In this document: piece by piece, positions 1 to 36,104 of the stretch
Position numbering within the stretch: position 1 is the first letter of the stretch
How the letters are laid out: every line of letters starts with the position of its first letter
NCBI GenBank assembly: GCA_037379345.1
Contig: CM074525.1
Location: 16,545,275 to 16,609,274 of the forward strand
Direction of reading: 5' to 3'
DNA length: 64,000 bases
From: Perna viridis
Lineage: Eukaryota
Notes under the pieces: generated by a model
Seen by the model: only the letters and a program-made list of their open reading frames with translations
What the model was told of the DNA's origin: nothing
The model's database searches: none
Translations under genes and position numbers: made by a program

Positions 1-1592
1 AGAAAATGGATAATACGAGAACATGAAGACATTGATTCTCTGCCAGAGTGGTTAAAGGCTACGATGTCTTTAATTTTGAAACGAATGAAAGTTTTAAGTA
101 GGTAAATGAGTACCTATGCTACATAAATTTTTCAAAAAACCCTGATGTAGCAAAAACATTGTCTACTATACACGACAAATATGTTGTCGTACCAGCAGAC
201 AAAGCCCAAAACAACATTGTTTTTGTCTGCAAAAGGTTTAACATCAAATGTTTATTATCAAAGGTAGACGTACAAAATAATAGCAGTGATGACCTATACT
301 GCTACCACTCTCTAAAGAAGAGATTGGGAAAAACCATAAATATGTGCTATCCCCCTTTGGTCTCTTTACCAAGGGCAATGATTGTGATTTACTGTCTATG
401 AACTGGATTTCTAAACTCCACAAGTATCCATACAAGCAACGTTACATAGCTGGATCTGCAAAATGTACCACCAAACCTCGTTTAAACTTTAAACTTATAT
501 ACTCACAGCTGTCAAAGATGGTCTGCAGTCCTACCACAACACTTATTACTCCCGTAGTGGTAGTAATGCCATGTGGATCCGGAAAAATTCAAAAGATCTT
601 TTGAAGACAAGCAGTTCAATACTATTATCAGAATATAATAGCATATGATTTGTCAACACTGTATACTTCTATTTCCATACTCAGTTAAAATCCCGACTCA
701 AAAACATTATACATCGTTGTTCTTTTTCAAAGATGGTACACCTAGATACAAATATATAGCTCTTGATGTTTACAAAATGTTGGAATTTTTAATCGACATT
801 GTATTTGTCCAGTGTGGTAGACGCGTTTGTCAACAAAAGGTCGGTATTTCAATGGGAAAAATTGTGCTCCTCTACTTGCTGACCTATTCCTTCACTCTTA
901 TGAAGCTGACTCTATAACTGATATGATTCTAAAGAAAGAATGTCGTTAAGCTAGATCCTTTAATCTCAGTTTCCGCTATATAGATGACGTATTATCTATA
1001 ACAATCCTAATTTCTGAGATCTGATACATCGCATCTACCAAAAAAAAACTTGAGATTAAGGATACTACAGACACTGTGAGGTTAGCCTCATATCTATCTT
1101 GACTACACTTAGAAATCGATGATAAAGAAAAACTTTGACAAAAACTACGACAAATGTGATGACTTTTTTTCGGAATTGGCAACATCCCTTCATCACTTGC
1201 GTATGAAGTGTTCATGTCACAACTCGTTATGCCAGAGCTTGCCGAAACTACGTAGACTTTTTGCATCGCGCTAGAATTCTAACAAAAAAGCTTCTGGAAC
1301 AGGGTTATGTTGCTACAAGATTGAAGTCATCACTACAGAAGTATGGTCGTCATCATGAACTCCTGGGTCGCTATGGTGTATCCATCTGCGTCATGAAAAC
1401 TGATTTGTTCAGCAGATGACGCTAACCCTACCGCTGCACCTGGTCCATGCCCATTCGCTTTTGTCACTTTGTATGTATGATTTTAGTTACTTTTTGTTCT
1501 CTGTTGTGTGCATCTGTTTTCCATGTCTGGTCTTTGTCCCTGGATTATATTCTTTTGATTACCGCTATAAACTTGATTCCCTTGATTACTCT
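1..1592 (+). mobile_element. Decayed Penelope-like retroelement (probably Naiad-type: RT is C-terminal, no downstream GIY-YIG), cut by window edge
   Basis: Frameshifted RT motifs: KYVVVPADKAQNN, WISKLHKYPYKQRYIAGSAKCTTKP, LEFLID..FVQCG..QQKVGISMG, FRYIDD, EQGYVATRLKSSLQK. Ends in the same 3' tail (..TTCCCTTGATTACTCT) as four other copies in the window. Confidence 0.85.
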
Positions 1593-1633
1593 CTCTGAAA
1601 AGAGAATCATGATTTAAAGTATGCCATACTTAC

Positions 1634-2257: not shown

Positions 2258-2291
<34 letters not shown>
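2258..2291. repeat. (TA)n microsatellite, insertion site of the 410-bp tandem element
   Basis: Pure TA run; TA run resumes at about 3146-3158. Confidence 0.95.
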
Positions 2292-2294
<3 letters not shown>

Positions 2295-2355
2295 GGGTCT
2301 GAAAAATTCCCAACGACGTTAGAACTGTCAAATTTGCGAAGCAAATTTTTTATCG

Positions 2356-2450
2356 TTCCCTCCGCGGGACTCGAACTCGTACGGCTGTGACATCTATGGC
2401 AACACCGCCTGCACTAAGTCCAGCGAGCTAGACCACTCGGCCAGCTAGGC
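2356..2450 (-). ncRNA. tRNA-Leu(UAG)-like Pol III module in repeat unit 1 (not a canonical tRNA)
   Basis: Minus strand TGGCCGAGTGGTCTAG (A box/D arm), GCTGGACTTAG (Leu-TAG-like anticodon arm), enlarged variable-arm hairpin, GTTCGAGTCCC (B box). Acceptor stem is poor. Confidence 0.55.
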
Positions 2451-2765
2451 TATATAAAAATATAGCTTTCGCTGGCCGGGTCATTCCTCCTCGTAGGATT
2501 AATCTAGGGCTGTAACTTAGTACACGATGTATGGTAGTACGGGTCAGTTCATCTAGGTGTTATTATGTAGGATAGAGGATCAAATTAATGATGCATGTCA
2601 CAACAAATCTATATTATACAACGTCTCAGAATGTGACGACTCTATTCGCTACACTGCTCCATCGGATCAAATTGATACAGGGAAGATAACGTAAACTTAT
2701 AGAAGGGTCTGAAAAATTCCCAACGATGTTAGAACTGTCAAATTTGCGAAGCAAATTTTTGGTCG

Positions 2766-2860
2766 TTCCTTCCGCGGGACTCGAACTCGTACCGCTGTGA
2801 CATCTATGGCAACACCGCCTGCACTAAGTCCATTGAGCTAGATCACTCGGCCAGCTAGGC
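2766..2860 (-). ncRNA. tRNA-Leu-like Pol III module in repeat unit 2
   Basis: Second copy of 2356-2450 with a few substitutions; A and B boxes retained. Confidence 0.5.
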
Positions 2861-3548
2861 TATATAAAAATATAGCTTTCGCAGGCCGGGTCATTCCTCC
2901 TCGTAGGATTAATCTAGGGCTGTAACTTAGTACACAATGTATGGTAGTACGGGTCAGTTCATCTAGGTGTTATTATGTAGGATAGAGGATCAAATTAATG
3001 ATGCATGTCACAACAGATCAATATTATACAACGTCTCAGAATGTGACGACTCTATTCGTTACACTGCTCCATCGGATCAAATTGATACAGGGAAGATAAC
3101 GTAAACTTATAGAAGGGTCTAAAAAATTCCCAACGATGTTAGAACTATATATATATATGAAATGGTTTCATATGCAAAATATTATTAAAAATCGTGTCAG
3201 TTGTAACTGATTATCACCTGGTTTCAGAAGACAAATACCAGATATATTCCATTCTCCATTTTTCTTATTTTCATCGGTCGAAATTTTGGATGTATATCTT
3301 GTAACGTGTGGAATAAAAAAAAACCAGAATCACAACAAACACGAGATATTACAATAAAATACTCTCACAAGTACAAATCACTAGACCAATGACAAACTCT
3401 GCTTGATGTATTAGTTTAATTGGTCGTCATTTTGGTGATCTTTCTTTATTTCCTATCCGTTTTTTGAAATATCAGTACCACCATGCTAAAAAGAGACCTA
3501 AACTAAGGATAAATATCATTCGTTATAGAGGGACAATTAAGTTCATAC

Positions 3549-3615
3549 CTGTGGTCGAAGATACTATTTCCATGTGAAAAATGAAAAACACAAAAGCAGA
3601 TCTTAAAAGAACCAT
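3549..3615 (-). CDS. VWA/EGF gene A, exon 1: signal peptide MVLLRSAFVFFIFHMEIVSSTT
   Basis: ATG at 3615, 67 nt, GTATGA donor, phase 1 matching the VWA exon. Homologous exons at 18318-18367 and 31842-31905. Confidence 0.8.
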
Positions 3616-6091
3616 GTTGTGTTCGATATTGAAATGGATTTCAAATATGCACATATTATGTAATTACACCAGGAAGGAAACAACACAAATTGCACAATTA
3701 ACATTGGTACAGATCTGTCCATTTAAATCGCTTCTTCCTCTTTTATGATAACAGATCTTAAGTACCAGTCCATATACAATACATACAATGCCCATAGTAA
3801 AATGATTCATGGTGTAGAAAAATCCTTGGATCAGAAGATGCTTGTTTTTGTCTACATATGCTTCATTTTTATGTGACAATAGTCCTTTCTCTATTTTCAT
3901 CTGTATTTTTTACAACCTTAAATTCTAAGTTCCCACTAAAATCAAACCAAATCAAGAACAATAACTCTTGCCAAGTGCAAATTACATGTACAATCCATAT
4001 AATTTTTTATTTCAAAAGCGCAACAACCAAATAATAAACTAACAGTGCTTATGTTATCAGTAACTGCTTCTTAACAAGAAATAAAAATAAAAAATAAAAA
4101 TAAAAAAATAAAAATAATTTTTTTTTGTATAAATAAAATCAGGGGCCTAATACGTCTTTTTTTCAAAAACAAGTGTTAAATACTAGACAAAATTTGAAAA
4201 TCGTATTTTTTACAAATAAATTATTTAAGGGTAGTTGATAAGTCCAACAAATTTATCTGTAGTAAACTCACCGCTTTAATGAGTCGGTTTGACGGATCGA
4301 TGACTGATCGAAAACTGATCGGTCATCGATGACCGATCGCAATTTGTATTGCACGGATCGTTTCAGGTACTGTATATCCAGCAATCTAACAAACAATTGC
4401 AAATAGTAATTTTAATTTAATTTAATCTCACTAAAAAACAAACATAAAATGAAGAATTTTTTTTTCTAACATGAAATTGACATTTTTAAAGGAGACTATT
4501 TATATCATTGTCTTCATTCAAGTGCTTACGTCGGGTTTTTAGTGGATTGGTTTACCACTGGTGTCGTTCCACAGTTAGGGGTTGTGGCCAAAATACTGAT
4601 TTGGATAATACGAAATGGACAATGTTGCTCGATAAGGCTGAACTGTTCAGAATTAAAAGATATTAAAATATTAACGTATGGATTTGTCAAGCGTATGTAA
4701 AAATACATGCTTCCTTTTGTACAGCATAACTCAGTAGCTAGGAGGTACATGTGTAAATGTGAATTCACGTTAACTCTTTATCGATTCTTATGTTCAGATA
4801 AAAATGTAAATACTGGTGAACAAATGCATAATGGTGATTAATAGACCAGCAATGATCTTAAAAAAAACATGGTAAATTTAGGTTATCATGAAATATTACT
4901 ACGATTAAAATTTACGTTTTGCAACAGTGATTTATTTCACACACTCTTCCGGGTTAACTGTCTTGGCTTATATTTCAATTCGTCTTCAGTGACTGAATAA
5001 ATAAGTCAAGTATTAAATTATGTCTTTACGATTTAATGCTTTTATCAGCTACTACAATCGATAAAACAACTAATGACATTTTAATGGAAAAAAATGTGAT
5101 TGATTGTTCTTTCTAGTTGTAAACAAACGAGTTTATAAATTGATCATTGTAATTGATTTTATTTGCAGTTTGATACACACGTTTAAGGAGAAACTAGAAT
5201 TTTAAGCATGTTTCGTGATATTTTTTTTCTTCAAATTTTGTTTAATTGTATTTTTTTTATTTGACATTACACTGCTTTAATTAATTAAACAACGGGGTTT
5301 GACTACGTTTTCAAACTATTTTGGATGTTTTATTACATTTTCCAAACTATTTTAGAAGTTATATATGCTAATTTTTTTTAATTTATGCCTCTGAAAGTAT
5401 TATCCATGGAAGCAGCAAATGTTTTCAGGCGGGGCTTAAATATACCAAAACTTCAAATTTTCGGAATAAGGATACTTCCTCATTCCTTGAAACTTTAACT
5501 AAGAAGTGTTTGGTGACTTTAGTTTATAGTGTATGGTCGGGGACAAGCAAAACAAAAGCGAAATTCGATCATCGCTTAAAAGACACATCAGTCATTGCTG
5601 CTCCACAGTTCACTATATTGTAGCAAAATTAGCCTCAAATGCTAAAATGTCAAACGTGGAGTGGTTTTATTTTTTAACTGGATAACAATATGACTAGTTT
5701 ATTTAAGTTTGATAAATATGTTGTATAAAATAAACGAAACAAAGTTTTTACCACACTAGCCGTTAAATTCTCATGTACACCGAAATAAATTGACATTGTT
5801 TTTCGTCTCGCGATTACTGGACCTTTTGTGGCGCCAACCATATTTTGTCATATTTTATGAAGATGATTCTTATGAAATTTCTGCCATTTTAACATTTACA
5901 ATACGTAAAGTGTAATTGTATACACATATGGAAAACCTCGCTATGTTATATGTACTATATGTAACAAGACCTTTCAAGCTAAAAATATGTTTATGAAGGT
6001 CTTAAACTAACTTTACGGAAATTATTTAAAATTAAAAGAACAGATAAAGAAATATTATAAGCCGATCAACCATATATTTATCATTCATATA

Positions 6092-8630: not shown

Positions 8631-10143
8631 ATGTGGAGAGTAATAGTGCTTTCAATAGTCTACTTACCAAATGTCAACTCAACAGAAGGTAGGGTTTTAT
8701 TTAAACGATCGCCTTATTTATATCTCCACAAAAGGATAAAACAATTCGTGACAAACGAATTTATTATTCGTTATATCTAAATACCATATTCTTTTCATAT
8801 TTCTAAATTGCAAACCAACTGTTCTATTAAAACCGTGTGATAGTTTAATCGCATTTAAAATACTAGATACAGGTTGTAATAAAACACAATATATGTATTT
8901 TTTATCACAGCTATATCAAACAGAGGAAGATATTTTATTCTTGGTTTTATGAAGAACTTACCAGATAGAGAAGTGTTTCTGCGTCTCTTTGTAACAACTA
9001 ACGCAGACAAAGACGTTATGGTCACAATAACAACTCCGATATTCGATTCTTCGTTTTCTCGAATACTGCATATTCGGAAAGGGCAGATAAAGAAAATACA
9101 GCTGGAAAATACACTTGAAGGATCAATTGGTATTGAAAAGAAGGGGATATGTGTTGTAGCTGATGAAGATATCGCTGTGTATGCCACTAATGAACGTGAA
9201 GTGACAATGGATGCCTTTTTAATCCTACCGACTTCTGCACTTGGTCTGCAATATTACGTTACTTCTTTCCCTGATAAAACATCCTTCATGATTGTTGCTA
9301 CAGAGAATAATACGGTGATCAATATTTCTTTTGGGAAAAATAGTCCTTCAGTATCAATAGCGGGGTACAATATAGGACCAGAAACATCGAATACGATACG
9401 TTTGAATAAGTTTGAGACATTTTTATTCATTCAACAGCTGGTGACTTCACTGGCACTGGTGTATTAAGTGATAAATTCGTCGTAGTTTATGGTGGTAGTG
9501 TTTGCGCCCATGTTGAAAAAGGATCTTGCGACCACATGATAGAACAAATGCTTCCAGTTGATAAATGGGGAAAAGAGTTTGTAACAGTCAGTATGCCAGG
9601 GTGTGAATCTACAGACACGTATAGGATAGTTGCAAGCGTTGAAAATACTGCTCTGGAATGGCTCCACAGAAACTTACGAATCCAGGGGATTTCTACCAAT
9701 TTGTATTAAGCAATTCTTTGTCAAAATCAGTTTCAGCAGACAAACCAGTAACACTAGCACTTTTTGCAAACGGCGAATGTGGTCCAAGAAATTTCGGTGA
9801 TCCAACTATGGTACTATTTCCTGCCATTCAACAATTTTCATCCGATTATACCTTCACGACTATATCGGTTGATGGTGTTAACTTTACAAATTATATTGCT
9901 GTCATCATGAAAGACAGCCACATAAGGGGTCTACGTTTTGATGGATTGAGCATTACACAAACAAACTGGAAAGCTGCAGATGGACGATCTGGTATTTCGA
10001 GCACGGAATTCAAAATTGCAACCGGCATCCATACTATTTCTCATGTAAATCCTCAAGTTTAATTCATGGCGCTTGTAAGTGGTTTTCAGTCATATACTTC
10101 ATATGGATATATTGCCGGATTAAATTTTAGACACAGAAGTAAG
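8631..10143 (+). pseudogene. IgGFc-binding protein (FCGBP) N-terminal-domain gene, disrupted; exons 8631-8688 and 8911-about 10143
   Basis: Signal exon MWRVIVLSIVYLPNVNSTE with GT donor. Exon 2 has the hallmark motifs NRGRYFILGFMKN, DAFLILPTSALGLQYYV, GDFTGT, CDHMIEQMLPVDKWGKEF, DPTMVLFPAIQQF, SYGYIAG. Frameshifts near 9422 and 9655 and in-frame TAA at 10060. Confidence 0.8.
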
Positions 10144-10258: not shown

Positions 10259-10465
10259 AGAGGAGGCTTACCCTACCGGTGCACCTTGTCCATCCTCCCA
10301 GTTTTTAGTGGAGTCCGAGTTGCTCATTTGCTTCTGTTACTTTGTATGCATGATTTTAGTTACTGTATGTTCTTTGTTGTATATGTCTGTTTTCCATGTC
10401 GGGTCTTTGTCCCTGGATTACATTCTTTTGATTACCGCTATAACCTTGGTTCCCTTGATTACTCT
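10259..10465 (+). mobile_element. Solo 3' tail of the Penelope-like element
   Basis: Near-identical to about 27712-27917; same 3' terminus. Confidence 0.85.
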
Positions 10466-14428: not shown

Positions 14429-17400
14429 TTACTCCAGTATACAAGTTAAAGTTTTCAATTGTTCATGGAAAGATGAAACAATAGTGTCTATAGAATTAAA
14501 CGACAAACCTCCGTTAATACCAACATGGAACGCCGTATTAGTCAGTGTACTCATTATATCAAATTCGTGGTCAGTATCATGAAGTCAAATAGTAAAAATT
14601 TCAAAGTCTGCAGTTTTGTTGAAAGTGATATTATTTGGGCAGTTTTCTATAATTTTGATGAGAGTTTCCTATTAATGAGTTGTTTAGGTTAATTTTTATT
14701 ACCCCCCCCCCAAAAAAAAAAAATAAAAAATAAAAATCCCCCTTCCCAAACACATACACACAAAGTGGCAAGGGATTATGTGATACCCTCTTGAAAAGTT
14801 GTGTGTCTGTCTGTCTGTCCATATCCTTATGGTTTCATTGATTTATGATCTCGGTATAATTGATCATTGAAGCCAGAGATAATTACCAGTTTTTTTTTCG
14901 TCGCTAATGTTCGAGCTCCGTTCAATGTATCATGCATCAAACTTGATGCAATTTCAAACATAGCTGTCAAAATAGAGCAAAGTTTCAAAGATAATTCATT
15001 GATCTGTTCTCAAGTTATCATCTGGAAACCATAAGGGTATGGACAGACAGACAGACACACAACTTTTCAAGAGGGTATCACATAACCCCTTGCCACTTTG
15101 TGTGTATGTGTTTGGGAAGGGGGATTTTTTTTTTTTATTTTTTTTTTTTTTTTGTGGGGGGGGGGTAATAAAAATTAACCTAAACAACTCATTAATAGGA
15201 AACTCTCATCAAAATTTTAGAAAACTGCCCAAATAATATTACTTAAAGGGCGAGACAAAGATAAATCACTATAATCATTTGTATCGCTAATGTTCGAGGT
15301 CCGTTCAATGTATCATGCATCAAACTTGATACAATTTCAAACATAGCTGTCATATTCGCATTTGTATCGCTGTCCTGTGTAAAGAACGATAACTGTCGTT
15401 TCATATCATTCCTGTTTGTTTCGTCGAACTCATTAAAGTCAAACATAATTTTAGGTTTCTCTGAGAATGTCATCATTGGATGGTCCAAGAGCGATGCCAG
15501 ATAGACGTTTGTTCACAACGGAAGTTACGTCAGTATGTGAAGAAACATTTGACGTATCGACTACAAATATCAGATCGTTATCTTCTGTACTTGTTACGAA
15601 AGCTGTGGCATCATAAAGTTTGGACGATAAATTAAAATCTGTTCTTACTGACTTCCTGTGGATAAGACATTTTATGTGGTGAAGGCAAGTAATGTACTAT
15701 ATATACAGGAAAATGTTCATTTGATATCTATATCAAATGGATATTATAATTTTTTTCGTATATATAACATTTGACGTATCGACTACAAATATCAGATCGT
15801 TATCTTCTGACGCTTGACAAACTACAAATCACAAGTGGTTTTAAACTATTATACATTGAAAAAATACTGCTATGTCATTTTTTTAAATTTGAAGTATTGT
15901 ATCAAATATTGGGAATGTTTGTGTTTTTAAAGTGGTGAATTTAATTCTGTAAACGTTCTTCTATAAATTTAAATCAGTGCCTTGTGGTATATACCCTTCC
16001 AAAATTCCTGTCGCGTGACCCATTTTTAAGAGAGAGGGTTCGGTTGAACATTTCGGAATTGAGATATCTTGATGTTTTTTGGAGAAATTGCCACGAAGTT
16101 TTCATTTTTAAGCTGCGTCAAAATGACGTCACCCGCTTATTGTTAAACATTTTGCTGTAGAAGTCTTTTTGAAAACTGTGTGTTTTTTATTTTCATGTGT
16201 AATAATATGACAGGAGGAAGCTTAAGCGACAACCCTACAAGTCTCTCTATAATATATATTTTCTATGATTAAATATCATTACTATCAAATATTCATTCAC
16301 TATCCAACTGCTCTACAGAGAGACTTGTATAATCTGCAATGTCCATAATTGAAGCCAGACAATTTAGCAATAAGATTTAATTGAATCTTTGTCACCTTGT
16401 TAATAAATATGTACTTAAAACCCAAACATTACTGATAGTTATATGAAAAGGGTGATATTCTAACATTTCTAAGCTATGGAACAATTAATATATATTTTGT
16501 GCCTATGGATTCAGATGTTCCTTTAACACCTGAAAAGATTTTTTTTTCATATTGACTATACATCCAGAACAAAACAATTAGTATGTGTTGGGGAAATGAC
16601 CTCTTAAGTAATATCTGTAGAACTTAAAATGCTTGGCCTAAAGTGGCTAACTATAGCGACAGTGCCATCTGTTACAGTGCTTCCCAACCTTTGAACAAAC
16701 ATAAAAAAAACAAAAAATCAAAACGAAACAGAAATACAAATACAAAAAACCACCACTTTGAAAAGTGTCATCTAATAAACATATGACACTAATTTACTAA
16801 TATGAAAGTCGGGTACAAATTTATTTCACATTTGTTGCCAGGATATCCTTCTTGGCAGATGCATATATAGTTCGTATTAACGGTGTGAATGCATGTACCA
16901 CCATTATTGCAAGGTTGAGGAGTTCTTTCACATGGATTATGGAGAATTTCTGAAATAATCATTGACTGATCATTAATCATTGATTGTTTTTATCATTTGA
17001 AACTGCTCACATATTTGTCAATAAATCTTAAACCTTAAAATAACTGTACATTAAATATCTAAAGCAATTTCAAAATCTTGACTACCACCACCATAATTTA
17101 TGCTGTTAATGTTGCTCTTTATTGAAGCCTTGTCATTGTAACATCAGAAATGATGGTGCTACATGCATTCATACCTTTAATACGAACTATAAATGCATCT
17201 GCCAGAAAGAAATATAAATACACCCGTTTGTCTGGTTTGAGGAAAGACGTTTTTGTTTGAAAATAACTTTACAATCTTGATTAAAGGAACACTATTGGCC
17301 ATGCTTTTACAGTAGCAATAAGTTACAAAATGTAATATTATTAATCTTACTTCAATCAAAGCTTCCCTCTATACCTTTTTTGTTCAGACAAAATAGACGA

Positions 17401-18367
17401 CATTTTAAAAAGAAGATACAAAACCTTTTCCCCATTGAATTCTTCCAATACAAAATTAAAGAAATTGTCCTATATTTATTAAAACTTGATATCTGATATG
17501 TTGCATACGATGCGTTTATAATTTCTATATTGTAACGTTATATTACACCAAAGGGACAAACTCTTTATTTAATACCTACTATTACATGTCTTCGTAGCTA
17601 ATGCATCGAATACACTTCCCACTAGCGCACTGTAATCCATTACTATGTACACATAACTCTATTAGTGGCAATCTGATTAATTTGGCTAGAGTCAACCAAT
17701 CCCCCTATTCCTACAGCGTACACAAGTATACCCAGCTGTTGTAGTAAAACACCACCATTTTCTACTGTAGATTGTCCATCAGTAAAGAAAAACAAGTTTT
17801 TGAAGGATGAAACGCGTGCTTCGTTTGATTTTTTTGAAACATATTGTCTTTGGCAAACGCTAAAGCAATTTCAGAATCTTGACTACCACCACCATAATTT
17901 ATGCTGTTTATGTTGCTCTCTATTGAAGCCTTGTCATTGCAACATGAAAATTGAAATTCATTTCCCATAACAACGTTGAAAGCATATGCACTGATTTTCA
18001 CCCCATTATTTCCGATCTCAAACAGATCAACAAACTTTAACACGAATTGTAAGTTCTTTTGAAATTGGACCTTGTAATGCTTCCCGACTCGTCGATCAGG
18101 AAACCAATGTCAGCAGGCTGTAGCCGTCCACAACCTAAGAAACAGAATACAAAGGAAGATACATTTTATTGTTTTAGATGGGCGTTGCATGTTCTTTGTA
18201 ATTCATGTCAAATTAAACAGAAGACGGAGAAGAAATGATTACTTCTGGAATGTAAAACAGAATTGTACAATGCACAATTCGTTTAACCTTAGTAAACAAA
18301 AGAAACAGCATTCATACCTTTCCATTTGAAAGATGAATAAAAGAAAGACAGATCGTATAAATTCCAT
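14429..18367 (-). pseudogene. VWA/EGF gene B pseudogene (signal exon 18318-18367, VWA 17580-18134, EGF about 16821-16949, shattered last VWA exon 14429-15821)
   Basis: Signal exon is 50 nt (out of phase). Two frameshifts in the VWA exon. EGF donor GT changed to AT. No EGF2 or VWA2 exon seen. Terminal exon broken by duplications and inverted inserts. Confidence 0.85.
14623..15244. repeat. Inverted repeat with arms 14623-14836 and 15025-15244, derived from a Helentron/HINE-like end
   Basis: Arms are near-perfect reverse complements; contain a (CTGT)n tract and a terminal hairpin resembling 45125-45310 and 56530-56735. Confidence 0.85.
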
Positions 18368-18683
18368 CGTGTGCTCTTTGTAACTAAATCAAAATCTCAA
18401 ATGAATGTACATCATAGGACCAGGGTGCGAATAAAAAGCAGTAAATATTGTGCATTGGTAATAGGATTGTCCATTTAAACATGTATGCTACTTCCTCTAT
18501 TTGATAAATGATGATAGGTCTATACTATACATGGTGAACCTACAAAATGAATTTGGTACATATTGTACGTTTTGACTGAGTAAAATAGATTATACAAAAG
18601 AAACTTCATTGTGATGTAATATTTTAGCTCTACCGTAAACACACATCAAACAAAAACATCAGTGACATGAAATAGTATTTGAA

Positions 18684-18766
18684 AGAGTAATCAAGGGAAC
18701 CAAGGTTATAGCGGTAATCAAAAGAATGTAATCCAGGGACAAAGACCAGACATTGAAAACAGACAT
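18684..18766 (-). mobile_element. Short 3' tail of the Penelope-like element
   Basis: Reverse complement of the last about 80 nt of the shared tail. Confidence 0.85.
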
Positions 18767-22251: not shown

Positions 22252-22856
22252 TTACTCCAGTTTACAAGTTAAAGTTGGCAACTGTTCATGTAAAGATGAT
22301 ACAAAAGTGTCAATTGAGTTAAACGTAAAGTCACCGTTAGTACCAATATGGAACGCCGTGCTAGCCATTGTACTCATTACATTAAATTCGTGGTCTGTAT
22401 TATGAAGTCCAATAGTAAAAATTTCAATGTCTGCACTTTTCAAATTATTTATCATTAATTCATCATCTAACGATAAATGCTCACTGAATCGTGAAATGAT
22501 TATAAGTTTTTTCTTCGCTAATGTTCGAGCTCCTTTCAATGTATCATGGATCAAATTAAATACACTGTCCAACAAAGCAGTCATGTTCATACCTGTCTCG
22601 CTGATCTGTGTAAAGAACGATAACTGTCTTTGCATATCATTTCTGTTTGTTTCGTTGAACTCACTAAAGTCAAACATAATTTTAGGTTTCGCTGAGAATG
22701 TCATCATTGATACTTTTGTTTTGGAAGGTCCAAGAGTGATCCCAGATAGAAGTTTATTCAGAATTGAAGGGATTGTATTTGTAAGGTCAGTATGCGTAGA
22801 TGAATTCGACGTATCGACTGCAATTATCAAATCGTTTTCGTCTGATGCTTGGCAGA
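22252..22856 (-). CDS. VWA/EGF gene C, exon 6: third (degenerate-MIDAS) VWA domain and stop
   Basis: TTGCAG acceptor, phase 1; DLIIAVDTSNS...KKKLIIISRF; ends LTCKLE-TAA. Confidence 0.85.
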
Positions 22857-23424
22857 CTGCAAATAACCAAAACAATGTAAAAGAGAAATGCTAAGATAAT
22901 TATCGCAACTTTACTCGTATGAGGAACAGTGTAATACTTGGGGTGCGTTTTTCGAAGTATGACATCCCATTTTTGGTGGGGGTTCATACTGCAAGTACTT
23001 GGGTTCTGTGTGTGCTGTCTTGTTTGTCTTATCATAAATTTTTATATGTAATTGTATTGTTTTTTATTGCCAATGTCGGTTTTCTGTTTCCATATTTTAG
23101 CCACGTCTTTAGATTCGATGTCTCTAAATTGTCCTTCAGTATTTCCCGGTATTTTAATAGGAACTCCGTAACATAAAACCTACTTCGTTTTTTAAAGTAC
23201 CAGAACGGCATCCACTTCAGGTCAAAATTGTTGTTTTTTTCAAAAAAAAAACATATTATGAACACATTATTGCATTATAAAGACAAGAGATTTTAACATT
23301 GTGTGTTTTGTCAAGTGCTTTTTATGCAGTCGTATAAAGAATTTATTTTTCATATCAGAGAAATAAAACTTAACATCTGCGAAACGCCAAACAGAAATGG
23401 TCCTAAAAGTCTCCTTACACATAC

Positions 23425-23976
23425 CGTTGCAAGACGTATTTACCAACTCGTTGACCATGTAGTTCCAGAGTTTATCGTTATTGTAGGGGAAAACAGAGTG
23501 AATGCTGCCAACTAATTGAGATAGCCAATAATGTGAAACGTCTTCTCCAATGGCTACAGCATAGATATTAATGTCTTCTCCAGTCATATAAATCTGGCCA
23601 GGCGTTGACGGAAGTCCGTCGGATAAAAGTATAATAAACTTCCGGACTGGTGTTTGACCTACGAGTCTGTTTCTGTTGTTTAAAATATTTCTTGCTAAGA
23701 AAACACCGTTTTGTATTGCTGAAGTGCCACCGTCCAGTTTCAACTGTTCAACGAAATTGTCAAATTTATCATTGTTCATGTTTGTGTCAAAATCTAGTTC
23801 TATTTTAGTACTTTCTGTGTATGACACAATTGCAACTTGCAACAAATTAGCAGATATTTGCCATTGCTTTGTTACCCGTTTTATTGTCTCCTTACTCATA
23901 TTAAAAAACTTGTCTCCTACACTCGTAGAACTGTCTATTACGAAAACAACATCAGATGGAAATGGTATGCACATAT
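23425..23976 (-). CDS. VWA/EGF gene C, exon 5: second VWA domain
   Basis: 552 nt, phase 1-1, AG/GT ends; DVVFVIDSSTS..GGT..ILLSDG MIDAS. Confidence 0.9.
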
Positions 23977-25336
23977 CTAAAAAGAGAATACAGTTGAATA
24001 CGCATTTTACATATATACTTGTATATGAAACAAATGCAGCACTTTTCTTTTGAAAAAAAAAATCATTTCCCGTATCTGTTATATACATGTACTGAAAGTC
24101 AGTGAAAGATGCATGGTGTAAGGGTGATACACAAATGTATCAAACAACTATGAAATTATTCTCGCATGCGCAACGATACCAATAATAGATAGTTTGTCAG
24201 TTCATTACTCTACACATCGTTTTCGCACTCTTTTTATAGACATTCGAGAGTGATTTTGATCCCTTCGTGATCAAAGAAATAGTTTTGAAATGATATTTGA
24301 GGTTCGTTATTATAAAACCAACAACCGAGTCGATGTACAAAATATAATAGGGTCAGAATTGATTAAAGCAAGGAAAAGATCGTGTAGCATATTTCCACAT
24401 ACAATTTTTTACAAATATTGTAGCTGAAGAAGACGTGATAAGGCTGAAGCAGTGTTTTCTGTTTTCTGTTCGATATCTATAAATATCTCATTACCAGTTG
24501 TTTGACCTGGTTCCTAATATGGTTTTCTAGTCAATATCATACGCAACCTAAAAATCGCGAAATGTACCTCTAAAAACAAATATTATACACATGGCTGTGT
24601 ATATTTTGTTGTTGTATGAGAACAGGAAGTTCACATCAAAAGATGAAATGATCGGTTAGCATTGAATTTATGTAATATTGCCAAGTATACGATTCAAACA
24701 CATTTGCTCGTTTACAATTGACTTTATAGGTCGCATACATTATCTATACATGCCATTTGTTTAATCTGGTTCCTGGTAACCAGTTGTTTTGATTGAAAAC
24801 ATTGGGGTCATTACGATTACGAATGAGTAATCATATTAAGGGAACCAATTTTCTAGCGGAAGTTACCGATCCATAGGCCTGCAATTTAATTATAGGTCAC
24901 TGCCCGATTTTAGAGCATACCGCATTCTTGCCATTTCGGAATCAGTGGCAGAGAATATTTGACGATTAGCGACTTTGAAGACTTCAGTCTTTTTTATTTT
25001 TATATTTGTTTTGTTAGTTCTTGTTTTTGTTTTCTAAAAAATACAGAATATATGTACATGTAATTCCAGGAATCTCAAAGTAAAATCGCCTGCATGTTTC
25101 AACATTCTCTGCACTTTCGTTAACCTAATATACAAGTAGTGATGCAATGTCATGTACTGTAAAAAGACAGCTGAACATATTTTAACCACAGATTGAAAGA
25201 AATGATCCATACATCCTTCTTACAGTACCATTTTCTCTGATAGACAGTACATTTTGTCCTAAATTTTAGAGACCTTTTTAACAATAATTGGATCGAACTA
25301 TTGTTTCTCCTGATGGAGTAGATAGGGTATACATAC

Positions 25337-26852: not shown

Positions 26853-27917
26853 TTTGCAAAAAAGATGGTACACCTAGATACAAATATATAGTTCTTGGTA
26901 GAGATTCCTCATAATTTGTAAGAAAGAATTCCAAATCATCTTCCAAATATACAGAGGAAGATGTTTAGAAAATGCTGGAATTTTTAATCGACAACATATT
27001 TGTCCAGTGTGGTGGACGTGTTTTTCAACAAAGGTCGGCATTCCAATGGGAACAAATTGTGCTCCTTTACATGCTGACCTATTCTTTCACTCTTATGAGG
27101 CTGACTTTATAGCTGATCTGATCAGAAAGAAAGAATATCGTTTGGCTAGATCCTTCAATCTCAGTTTCCGCTATATAGATGACGTATTATCTTTAAACAA
27201 TCCTAATTTCGGGGATATGATACATCGCATCTACCCAAAAGAACTTGAGATAAAGGATATTACAGACACTGTGAAGTCAGCCTCATATCTTGACACTTAG
27301 GAATCGATGGTAAAAGAAAACTATTGACCGAACTTTACGACAAACGTGATGACTTTTCATTCAGAATTGTCAACTTTCCTTTCATCTGAGGCAACATCCC
27401 TTCGGCACCTGCGTATGGAGTGTTAATATCACAACTCATACGTTATGCCAGAGCTTGCCTAAACTACGCAGACTTTTTTGTATCGCGCTAGAACTCTAAC
27501 AAATAGGCTTCTGGAACAGGGTTATGTTGCTACAAGATTGAAGTCATCATTACAGAAGTTTTATGGTCGTCATCATGAACTCGTGGATCGTTATGGTGTA
27601 TCCATCTGCACCATGAAAACTGATTTATTCAACGGGTCATAGTTTTCCTTTCCTCTTTTGTCTACCCCGGACTTGACTTTTATGAGCAACTCCTCGGGTG
27701 TTTCTAGAAAAGCAGAGGACGCTTACACTATCGGTGCACCTGGTCCATGCTCCCAGTTTTCAGTGGAGTCCGAGTTGCTCATTTGCTTTTGTTACTTTGT
27801 ATGTATGATTTTAGTTACTTTATGTTCTTTGTTGTGTATGTCTGTTTTCCATGTCTTGTCTTTGTCCCTGGATTACATTCGTTTGATTACCGCTATAACC
27901 TTGGTTCCCTTGATTAC
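26853..27917 (+). mobile_element. 5'-truncated Penelope-like (Naiad-type) retroelement with 3' tail
   Basis: GIPMGTNCAP and FRYIDD RT motifs; ORF remnant ends TAG at 27640-27642 with no GIY-YIG following; several frameshifts and stops; about 275-nt tail. Confidence 0.88.
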
Positions 27918-28314: not shown

Positions 28315-30642
28315 GTAGATTGATTAATTGATAAATTGGTGTTTAACGCCCAAGAAACAATGTTTCAGCTATATCCTGGCAATGAACATGAAATGATGAT
28401 GATGAAATAAACATAAAAACATAAAAATTGGGATGGGACACAAGGTTAATAAGGTCAACTAGTTCCGATTGCCACAGAAAAAATGAGAGAGATGGATATG
28501 GTCGGGCAATTTAGTCTCCTGCATGGAAGACAATGCTCCTTCTCCTTTCAAATACCACAACAAGGTTTTTAAGGTGCGAGAAACATGATATTTTCCCAAC
28601 ATGATGCACCACTATAGTTTGCGGTCAAGTTTTCCGTATTATTGGCAGCCAACACCAGCATGTACAGTTGCGATCACTTCTAACCTCTCTTCGATCTGTC
28701 AGGATTTGCTGTCATAGAACAGTTCTAAACTGTCAGAAACTGTTCTGACCCGCGACACACCTTGTCAGGGTCTGTCAGGACTTCGGACAAGCTCTGTCAT
28801 AATTTGTCATGGGTCCTGACACCCTCCTGTCAGGAACTGTTCTAGGTAGAACAGGTACGTGGATTAGAAGAGTTCCTGACAGATTATGACAGTCATTAGC
28901 TCGAGAATACTTCTCTGACTGAATTGCATACAGTACATGTACGTGATTTCGAAAAAAAGCGTAGCACCCGCATTCCGATTCGTACGACGGGAAAGAAGCC
29001 TTGCTATGTTTAAACTTGATGGGTTTTTTTTCAATTTTTACCCTACTTTTATGCATGGCATGCAGTACCAACAGAAATTGTTCCCTGCCGTACTTGATAC
29101 GCCCATGACTTTAAAGAATTGGACTGCATTCCTTTTGGTTGCAGATCTAGACACCGGTATGATACAGATTACCAATATATATTGACATTTTTAAACAGTT
29201 TATACAGAAATTTTAGACCTTTATGGAATTTTAAAGAGTTCACACTCATACAATTTGAACGAATAGGACATTTTGAAGAATTTTGACCGAAATATATTAG
29301 TCGAAGTCACCCACGTGGTAATTAGACTCAAACTAATGTGTCGCAGCCACCACATTATATCAATATTGAAAAATTTACCAATTTAGTCATTAATTTTAGG
29401 CCCTCATCGAAATAAAAAGTGCTGGCACTCATACATTTTGCAAGAATATGACATTTTTGTAGAGTTTTGACAAAAAATATATGAGTCAATGTCACCCACA
29501 TGATAGTTGTATTGAAAAAAATAAGCATTTTAGTCAATAATTTTAGACCCTCATGAAAAATAAAACTGCCTGCACTCATACATTTTGACTGAAATAATGG
29601 TGTCGCAGTCACTAATATGAAACTAACATTTTTAGTTACTACATTTTCTACATATAAGACTGTTATCACTCATATTCGTTGCTAAAAGTGGCATTTTGAA
29701 GAATTTTGATCGAAATATTTAGGTATCAGTTACCCATCTCATGCAAAATTGTCAATTTAACATTTTTAGAATGATTTGTGACCCTTATGTTATTAAAAGT
29801 AGCTTTCACTCAAAAAAGTACTTCGTCAATCTTGAACATCGTGAGAATTACCGTACGTCTGAAAGTTATCTGTTACGGCTTTTACACTTAGAACAGAAAC
29901 ATAGATCTTTAATTTTATAATTAAATAATTTGATTTAATTAATATCACAGGTGTATGACAAAATGTAAAAAAAAATATACATGTAAATAGTGATAATTTT
30001 TGAACGATGAGTGACTGGACCGTGATCGACGAAAATTGGAACTTGAACAACGATCGAGTGATTATGAGATGATGATCACGACGAGCTCTCTATATATAAT
30101 TGAAAATTTAATGTAAATTTTGAAATCAAAATTTGTTCCCTAACTAATCGGGTTAGCTAATTTACATTAGTCACACAGTTTCATTTATTAATCGCGCACT
30201 TCCTGTTCTAAATTACGTCACACAAAATAGAAAGATTTAGTGTCAGGAACTGTCCAGGGGTATGACAGTATAGAACAGCTTTTTGTATTTTCTTTGTCAC
30301 GACCCAGGACAGTTTCTGTCAGGATTTGTCAGAGAATATGCAAAATGTGTCCTGACCCAGGACAGCTTCTGTCAGACACTGTCAGGATCTGCCGGGATTT
30401 CTGTTCTATCTGCTGTCGTAGAACAGATATCCTGACAGATTCTGACAGAATTTAAGAGAGGTTAAAAGTGATTGCAACTGATGTATACCTTATTCAAACA
30501 CCTAGGGCACACAATGCAGTTGCTCTGTAAGCAGACCACCTTAGCCCCCGGCCAGGGTTCTAAACGATATTTGATCGCCTTTTACGAGAAGCTTAGCGCT
30601 GTTGCAGGCCTATTCTTTTGACACTCAGACCTGCACGGAGCT
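28315..30642 (-). mobile_element. SINE-like/RTE-derived element split by the 28665-30480 DNA transposon
   Basis: Minus-strand 3' tail GATATAGCTGAAACATTG..GGCGTTAAAC plus (CAAT)-like repeats (similar tail at about 42835-42890). The rejoined flanks match 13868-14055. Confidence 0.55.
28665..30480. mobile_element. 1.8-kb non-autonomous DNA transposon, CAG termini, 5-bp TSD (hAT5-like)
   Basis: TIRs CAGTTGCrATCACTTyTAACCTCTCTT; ATGTA at 28660-28664 and 30481-30485; dense subterminal TGTCAG/CTGACA motifs; no transposase ORF. Confidence 0.85.
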
Positions 30643-30729
30643 CGTTTGGTAGAGATGAGCAAATAATAACTTGGCACCACTTTTTTTCCAAATCACTGAA
30701 TCCGCTTATGAACAATATGGTATACTTAC

Positions 30730-31284
30730 CATTACAAGTTTTCGTAGCCAGCGCATCGAATACACTTCCTATGAGTGCACTGTAATTTGATACCATGTAC
30801 ACATAACTATTGTTAGTAGCTATCTGGTGCAGCTGAATGCTATTGACTCCACTACCAACGCCAACGGCGTAGACAATAACACCCTGTTGACGTAGTAAAT
30901 CTCCACCATTTTGCACTTGAGACTGCCCATCAGTAAAGAAAAAAAGAATCTTCAATGTTGCATCACGAGCTCCGTTACTCTTTTGAAACATACTGTTCCT
31001 GGCAAAGCCTAATGCCATTTCAAAGTTTTCACCACCTCCATTAAAACTTATGTTCTTCACCTCATTCTTTACTGAGGACTTGTCCTTGCAACATGAAAAA
31101 TGAAATCCATGAACATCGGTGTGATCGAAGGCAAACGCACTTATCTTAACCCCATTGTCCCCTATTTCAAACAAGTCAACAAACTTTGTAACGAACTGTA
31201 AGTTTTTCTGAAAGTTATGATGACCAACGCTTCCTGACTCGTCGATTAAGAAACCGATATCGGCTGGCTGTAGCTTGCCACAAC
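30730..31284 (-). CDS. VWA/EGF gene C, exon 2: first VWA domain
   Basis: 555 nt open, phase 1-1, TATAG/GTAAGT; DIGFLIDESGS...FFTDG MIDAS. Confidence 0.9.
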
Positions 31285-31348
31285 CTATAATTACAGATAC
31301 ACGAATCAAATGGTCTAATTTTTATACTAGGAGTACAAAATACATGTA

Positions 31349-35794: not shown

Positions 35795-36104
35795 TTAAGA
35801 CAGGTTATTTGTTAGAACAGGTGGTCGTTACTACAGGTTATTTGTGAGAATAGGTGGTCATTAAGACAGGTTATTTGTGAGACTATGTGGTCATTAAGAC
35901 AGGTTATTTGTGAGAATAGATGGTCATTAAGACAGATTATTTGTGAGAACAGGTAGTCGTTAAGACAAGTTAAATGTAAGAACAGGTGGTCGTTAATACA
36001 GGTTATTTGTGAGAACAGATGGTGGTTAATACAGGTTATTTGTGAGAATAGGTGGTCATTAAGACAGGTTAAATGTAATAACAGGTGGTCGTTAATACAG
36101 GTTA
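35795..36104. repeat. 33-bp minisatellite, about 9 copies, following a MITE-like end at about 35662
   Basis: Unit TTAAGACAGGTTATTTGTGAGAATAGGTGGTCA, itself two related ACAGGT/ATAGGT half-units. Confidence 0.85.

Follow-up and report, generated by a model that had tools for sequence, protein, structure and literature searches.

In Perna viridis, a high-copy, non-coding, tRNA-derived family sits head-to-tail in TA repeats, and the explanation towards which we lean is that it is likely a non-autonomous retroelement moved by target-primed reverse transcription (TPRT), probably with a Penelope-type enzyme. The window analysed here is a stretch of 64,000 nucleotides (GenBank assembly GCA_037379345.1, contig CM074525.1, positions 16,545,275 to 16,609,274 of the forward strand; coordinates below are those of the window), and it holds a tandem insertion of the family for which Tandem Repeats Finder reports a period of 410, 2.1 copies, 96% matches and a score of 1620. 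Reading on the minus strand, the insertion consists of unit 1 (2291–2700, 410 bp, A and B boxes intact), unit 2 (2701–3110, 410 bp, A box altered), which differs from unit 1 at 13 of 410 positions (BLAST and alignment of the window), and a partial third unit of 36 bp (3111–3146), which constitutes the terminal redundancy and presumably ends in a truncated 5′ end. The left flank, (TA)17 at 2258–2291, is the target microsatellite and abuts the end of the element that is 3′ in the tRNA sense; the right flank is (TA)6 at 3146–3158, a TA run of 12–13 nt. An earlier, sequence-only reading of this DNA had described two near-identical 410-bp units and a 36-bp partial unit between TA runs, and that layout is confirmed. 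Three runs of at least five TA/AT units occur in the 64-kb window, two of which flank the insert, and these (TA)n flanks make no target-site duplication (TSD) readable there. The unit is without a coding frame, its longest stop-free stretch being 65 codons. A diverged relative of about 120 bp lies in the opposite orientation at 42717–42836 on the plus strand (BLAST E 4e-11, 74% over 82 columns); it starts near the position equivalent to 3025–3030, an entry point discussed below, continues across the junction between units and breaks off close to the hairpin. It is adjoined by a (CAAA)-type tail at 42837–42900, which we take to be probably the 3′ end of another SINE.

An intron of a VWA-domain gene harbours the tandem insert, 66 bases upstream of the splice acceptor that opens the 2191 exon; the promoter strand of the insert runs in the direction of that gene. 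VWA-like exons of this multi-VWA gene are found on the minus strand at 1614–2191, 17762–18109, 22252–22890, 23267–24139 and 30593–31321 (Pfam VWA in the three scanned), and exons for an IgGFc-binding domain (8883–10062, plus strand) are apparently nested between them on the opposite strand. Calpain exons occupy 39949–46583 on the plus strand (Pfam Peptidase_C2 for 39949–40293), with the 42717–42836 relative between them. The window also contains a 33-bp tandem array of 9.4 copies (35795–36105) and an element of about 620 bp (14623–15244) whose long inverted arms are 95–98% complementary, MITE- or foldback-like.

The family was surveyed in four of the 24 listed public runs, aligned to 2701–3700 (1000 bp) at 88% likeness: two contig sets, X1 of unstated kind and X3 probably from DNA, together with two raw RNA runs sampled to about 19% and 25% of their reads. 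The 1000-bp stretch was matched by 31,364 and 11,312 contig records in the two contig sets, and both contain the right junction of the present insertion (contigs 3129–3700) with one difference each from the window. Relative to the flank, summed word depth over the unit reached 15,000–39,000x in X1 and 30,000–86,000x in X3; this measure is not a copy number, and dividing it by a worst-case 31-fold overlap leaves about 500–1000. The family thus numbers hundreds of copies at minimum and probably thousands. Exact unit motifs were found in no prokaryote genome, and three metagenome and four viral loci with exact motifs were set aside as chance (BLAST matches of at most 19–25 bases, GC 43–52%).

TA-flanked ends of these copies cluster at two sites. 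Among 24 of the 1,591 rows of loose ends, 11 are TA-rich and all 11 are on the same side, representing 189 contigs in X1 and 75 in X3; of the other rows, eight reflect the mismatch cluster of unit 2 at 2833–2843 and five the read-through of a variable junction. Among the rows listed, the TA-rich ends fall at 3025/3030 in all four runs and at 2703/2706 in three of the four. The former marks the major entry point of the family, an internal TATA at 3025–3030 (2615–2620 in unit 1; minus strand), and the latter the unit junction together with a second entry point at 2698–2706 (internal TATA 2701–2706; minus strand), which the present insertion used at 2291. Both entry points are 3′ ends on the promoter-sense (tRNA-sense) strand. 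Depth jumps at 3025–3030 in 4/4 runs (in X1 from 1.98M to 4.29M) and then declines round the unit, contigs span 2866, 3025 and 3110, and joints that go back from 3097–3104 to 2701 recur in 4/4 runs (among 15 of 340 joint rows). Since depth at 3147 is 11–19x that of the flank, some other copies also end there. The microsatellite association and the head-to-tail junction described by the sequence-only reading are traits of the family, whose entry points are permuted. Nothing found here corresponds to a single locus, or to fixed-end monomers with TSDs and without TA bias or a transcript, either of which that reading had named as counter-evidence.

Comparison of the two units with the family informs on their origin. 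Among 40 of 45 variant rows, the unit-1 letter is the family majority at eight of the 13 unit differences. Letters that are rare in the family are common to both units at 2954 (at most 1% of DNA depth), 2836 and 2837, which indicates that the two units come from one template, from which each has since diverged by about 1.6%. A one-template origin fits the repeated copying of one RNA, and it also fits a later local duplication.

The RNA runs contain 3,111 matching reads among 10,351,272 and 3,598 among 12,857,140 (about 300 and 280 per million), on both orientations at similar depth. Unlike sequence is entered by 70% of the matching reads; such a quick exit from the element points to short dispersed copies and not to arrays. 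No place with many RNA starts or ends is seen in these two runs of unstated selection, and the element's RNA looks like passive inclusion in host transcripts. Neither a circular RNA nor a Pol III RNA of about 150 nt is visible in the two runs, a result that neither shows nor excludes such molecules because libraries of unstated selection could miss short or circular Pol III RNAs. Junction reads occur in DNA-type runs as well and so do not show a circle. A T>C change at 2923, inside the long hairpin, is strand-biased in both RNA runs (58/368 versus 2/195 reads by strand in X21; at most 0.3% in DNA), which could reflect A-to-I editing of that hairpin or a single expressed locus carrying the variant allele.

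The head of the unit carries a promoter-like arrangement without a cloverleaf. In unit 1 (2360–2450, minus strand) it comprises an A box (2443–2433), an anticodon-like triplet (2416–2414) and a B box (2376–2368), and the two boxes match the strict consensus 56 bases apart, a pairing found in 3 of 5000 shuffles. A and B boxes had been claimed for each unit on the minus strand, which stands in strict form for unit 1; the A box of unit 2 is changed at its last base (2843), where 97–99% of the family has the unit-1 letter. ARAGORN found no tRNA gene and an Rfam search of the element gave no tRNA among ten weak matches at E<=10, so the head is a tRNA-like promoter and not a tRNA. A functional tRNA gene was accordingly rejected: a cloverleaf with a conserved anticodon is absent by ARAGORN, Rfam and family variation. 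We see in the head a putative resemblance to tRNA-Leu. The Leu(UAG)-like anticodon proposed earlier is not conserved in the family, where the middle anticodon base (position 2825) differs in 50–66% of depth; the Leu anticodon as a functional feature was rejected on that variation. Two T5 tracts accompany the head. T5 no. 1, a candidate Pol III terminator about 145–150 nt below the head, had been reported at plus-strand 2302–2306 and is found there (minus-strand 2306–2302). T5 no. 2 (2460–2456, minus strand) lies in a palindrome centre at 2449–2466, six bases above the head, and had been overlooked, as had the inverted copy of the head next to it.

This inverted, degenerate copy of the tRNA-like head (about 2460–2553, plus strand) is predicted by folding to base-pair with it. 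Its alignment score of 56.5 exceeds the maximum of 56.0 among 500 shuffles, none of which reaches 56.5, making its presence significant by a margin that is not wide. With such a copy present, the unit is predicted to fold as a long rod (z -3.8 and -3.1 for the linear unit; z -4.4 and -3.5 for the circular form), and the folding strength would be largely due to the inverted head. An RNA from one head to the T5 no. 2 of the next unit would have unit length, and both its ends are predicted to pair as a panhandle. Predicted accessibility of the entry sites is mixed: the 2698 site appears unpaired (0.61–0.84), the TATAs of the palindrome paired (0.02–0.18), and the major entry site paired in unit 1 (0.03–0.05) and unpaired in unit 2 (0.68). 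A smaller hairpin of 8 bp (2330–2348) also exists, as the sequence-only reading had noted, but its GCGAAGC reads on the plus strand instead of the minus strand and its loop is variable, with another base at position 2750 in 58–72% of family depth (4/4 runs). Variation of this order in both places shows that neither loop nor anticodon is conserved, and the GCGAAGC mini-hairpin was rejected as a functional feature, being a minority form within the family.

From the 3′ ends fixed on the promoter strand, the variable 5′ ends, the TA on both sides and the TATA at the points of entry, we infer TPRT with internal annealing. The tRNA-sense strand would be transcribed from tandem source loci, either by an internal Pol III promoter reading through T5 or passively. 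It counts against this scheme that read-through must be assumed: an RNA terminated at T5 no. 1 would contain neither entry point. Also against it are the RNA on both strands at similar depth, without discrete ends, and the mixed accessibility of the entry sites. A partner endonuclease may then nick (TA)n and the DNA end anneal to an internal UAUA of the RNA, after which the RT would copy a variable length, mostly less than one unit but 2.09 units in the present case; the products would be permuted, 5′-truncated and partial-tandem copies. A multimeric or circular RNA could serve as template, as could a monomer to which the RT returns by template jumping. Tandems may be favoured, since a unit could be transcribed from the internal promoter of its neighbour, as described for Sm-alpha.

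A Penelope-type partner is suggested by the likeness of these outcomes to those of known elements. The passages of PMC8557442 on Naiad Penelope-like elements describe partial tandems, adjacent inverted copies, 30–40-bp extensions, (TA)n targets and no hammerheads. The 36-bp partial unit corresponds to a partial tandem with a truncated 5′ copy or a 30–40-bp extension, and microsatellite targeting is seen in the TA-rich loose ends of 4/4 runs. The window itself contains a frameshifted Naiad-like Penelope relic (1–1595, plus strand) with a DKA motif, an RT core and a short 3′ UTR and no endonuclease after the RT, and other Naiad-like pieces lie at 10259–10465, 18681–18763, 26861–27917 and 46650–46859. 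It counts against a Naiad-like partner that none of the five 3′ ends is TA-flanked or followed by a TA run and that BLAST found no sequence match between the 410-bp unit and these relics. The relic at 1–1595 was considered as a part of the element or a demonstrated partner and rejected, having no match and no TA-flanked end. A homologue search with a piece of the RT returned five proteins. Mobilization by a Penelope-like RT, as the earlier reading proposed, is consistent with the partial tandems and TA targets, but no partner was recognised in the window; no Penelope-like ORF adjoins the element either, for the relic ends at 1595, beyond a host exon, and shares no sequence with it. Two unit motifs had no match in the PMC8557442 consensus files, where line breaks can hide matches.

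A more familiar explanation would be a tRNA SINE of the ordinary kind, about 245 nt long and dependent on a LINE, with its head near 2865, its 3′ end at 3025 and a TA tail; nested insertion, and unequal crossing-over at the 36-bp repeats, would then have made the 410-bp unit and the present dimer. We consider this rather unlikely. Depth does drop by 37–47% across the head's 5′ end and jump at 3025–3030, from which it follows that many copies may begin near the head; the claim that the tRNA module is internal and thus unlike a SINE is correct for the present locus, and internal only in the present permutation. Rare letters shared by both units also fit local duplication, and the sections of PMC11481361 on bivalve arrays describe tandem and palindromic SINEs and TSD crossover. 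A SINE, however, has a 5′ head and one fixed 3′ tail, whereas here the head is internal at the locus, there are two 3′ entry points and the junctions are read through, with other diverged copies spanning each of the three internal junctions. The inverted arm is covered by about half of the depth, a T5 lies inside the proposed SINE, and a pure TA tail is listed for none of the entries in the bivalve SINE table (PMC11481361). Least probable of all is a satellite monomer spread by DNA recombination or extrachromosomal circles without a dedicated enzyme, which we regard as highly improbable: cyclic continuity and permuted ends are what it predicts, but the ends are clustered on one side at two sites and joined to (TA)n, and the exit of 70% of matching RNA reads from the element within the read length speaks against arrays. 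Fixed plus-strand starts, dispersed stops and head-to-tail junctions fit rolling-circle polarity, and Helitrons end in 5′ TC and 3′ hairpin-CTRR. All three of these polarity traits are present in the family, and next to the hairpin lie the stops of the partial unit as well as of the 42.7-kb relative, as could be expected of a non-autonomous, Helitron-like rolling-circle DNA transposon with a captured tRNA-like head, whose plus-strand starts are fixed, whose stops vary and whose tandems come from DNA circles. Neither entry point, however, has 5′ TC or 3′ CTRR, both being TATA that matches the target, the GCGAAGC loop is a minority form, and the fixed ends lie where reverse transcription of the promoter strand would place them, which together make a Helitron-like origin quite unlikely.

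The retroelement reading itself can be drawn closer to the retrozymes, in two ways. That the element is truly retrozyme-like, its 410-nt RNA being covalently closed by a host ligase or by a ribozyme that escaped recognition, appears very unlikely to us, even though the unit is near in size to the 350–390-bp retrozyme families of Mytilus galloprovincialis in the part of PMC7229834 that covers them, is strongly self-paired in both linear and circular form, and matches an HDV-like pattern once, on the plus strand, under relaxed settings. A hammerhead search allowing one core mismatch gave no match on either strand, no strict HDV fold occurs in the unit, and no ribozyme family, hammerhead included, is among the ten Rfam matches at E<=10. 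The relaxed pattern, of a kind found in 2 of 200 shuffles, was rejected for its joiner of about 220 nt, an extra base before GG, mismatches in P1 and P2 and its position on the strand opposite the promoter, and the self-pairing derives mostly from the inverted head. Although 410 bp is counted as agreeing with the 170–400 bp of retrozyme tandem units, being slightly longer, the retrozyme-like set of traits claimed by the sequence-only reading lacks the type I hammerhead in each unit on both strands, and without a hammerhead the element is not a retrozyme as defined. Alternatively, it might be a ribozyme-free counterpart of a retrozyme, a doubtful but conceivable model in which the terminator above the promoter would cut out a unit-length RNA with paired ends and a TA-primed, Penelope-type RT would circle on it, entering at an internal UAUA and either jumping from end to end of the RNA or following a ligated circle. 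Such elements would form a class of tRNA SINEs that are circularly permuted and depend on Penelope. TPRT of a tRNA-derived, non-autonomous element by a probably Penelope-type enzyme is the reading we retain.

Wherever the published table names a partner for a bivalve tRNA SINE, that partner is a LINE (PMC11481361), and known Pol III tandem parasites depend on the hammerhead; a ribozyme-free, Penelope-using tRNA element would, if true, add to the known SINE partners. Priming by Penelope RTs on microsatellites, and their formation of partial tandems, are named as unresolved in the discussion of these elements in PMC8557442, and the two internal entry points would, if the reading is true, be a testable natural substrate for both processes. 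Should the element be a SINE with nested duplications, it would represent one more unannotated repeat family. In the literature searched, no tandem element was found that is at once tRNA-derived, hammerhead-free and TA-targeting, and PMC7998251 and PMC10294476 contributed nothing decisive; Repbase and Dfam lay outside this search, and either could already contain the family.

Bivalve tRNA SINEs (Meta, V, Deu, Core, MD and unclassified) resemble the 410-bp family in their A and B boxes, a length of 200–700 nt, intronic position and occasional tandem or palindromic arrays, as far as the relevant passages of PMC11481361 describe them, PMC4758252 being a further source on bivalve SINEs; they are set apart by descriptions of 5′ heads, single tails, TSDs in 181/201 and no pure TA tail (PMC11481361). 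Helenus TRIMs, also from bivalves, have an internal tRNA-like promoter and possible tandem arrays, yet the account of their structure in PMC10886601 gives an LTR-internal-LTR layout with tRNA-containing LTRs, PBS, PPT and a 4-bp TSD, whereas the terminal repeat here is 36 bp and contains no tRNA part. Non-LTR retrozymes share unit size, tandem layout, self-paired RNA and a proposed dependence on Penelope-like elements (PLEs) in the passages devoted to them (PMC7229834; bioRxiv 10.64898/2026.07.22.740005), which also set them apart by a type I hammerhead in each unit that the 410-bp unit is without.

Closer likenesses are offered by two other groups. Naiad and Chlamys PLEs and the non-autonomous Chlamys derivatives (MRC1) combine partial tandems, 5′ truncation, an inverted copy, an extension and (TA)n with the absence of a canonical hammerhead in the portions of PMC8557442 concerned; the 410-bp unit, in contrast, has no ORF and shares no 3′ end with any PLE seen, and those passages describe no tRNA-derived promoter. 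The Naiad table lists (TA)n in 18 of 54 rows overall and in none of the 11 bivalve rows, so bivalve Naiads appear there without the (TA)n preference, whereas the 410-bp family is TA-flanked (PMC8557442). The SINE-like retroposons Sm-alpha and Sj-alpha of Schistosoma are likewise tRNA-derived and of very high copy number, with a Pol III promoter in a tandem unit such that an upstream unit drives the next, according to the passages on them in PMC6765202 and PMC2770079. Sm-alpha comes nearest in layout. In Sm-alpha a hammerhead cuts the multimer (same passages), and the 410-bp unit has the Pol III promoter and no hammerhead; the Sm-alpha descriptions, in these passages, state no TA targeting and no pair of permuted entry points, both of which are features of the 410-bp family. 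The family works like Sm-alpha or like a non-autonomous Penelope-like element, as a candidate member of either kind, and does without the hammerhead of Sm-alpha.
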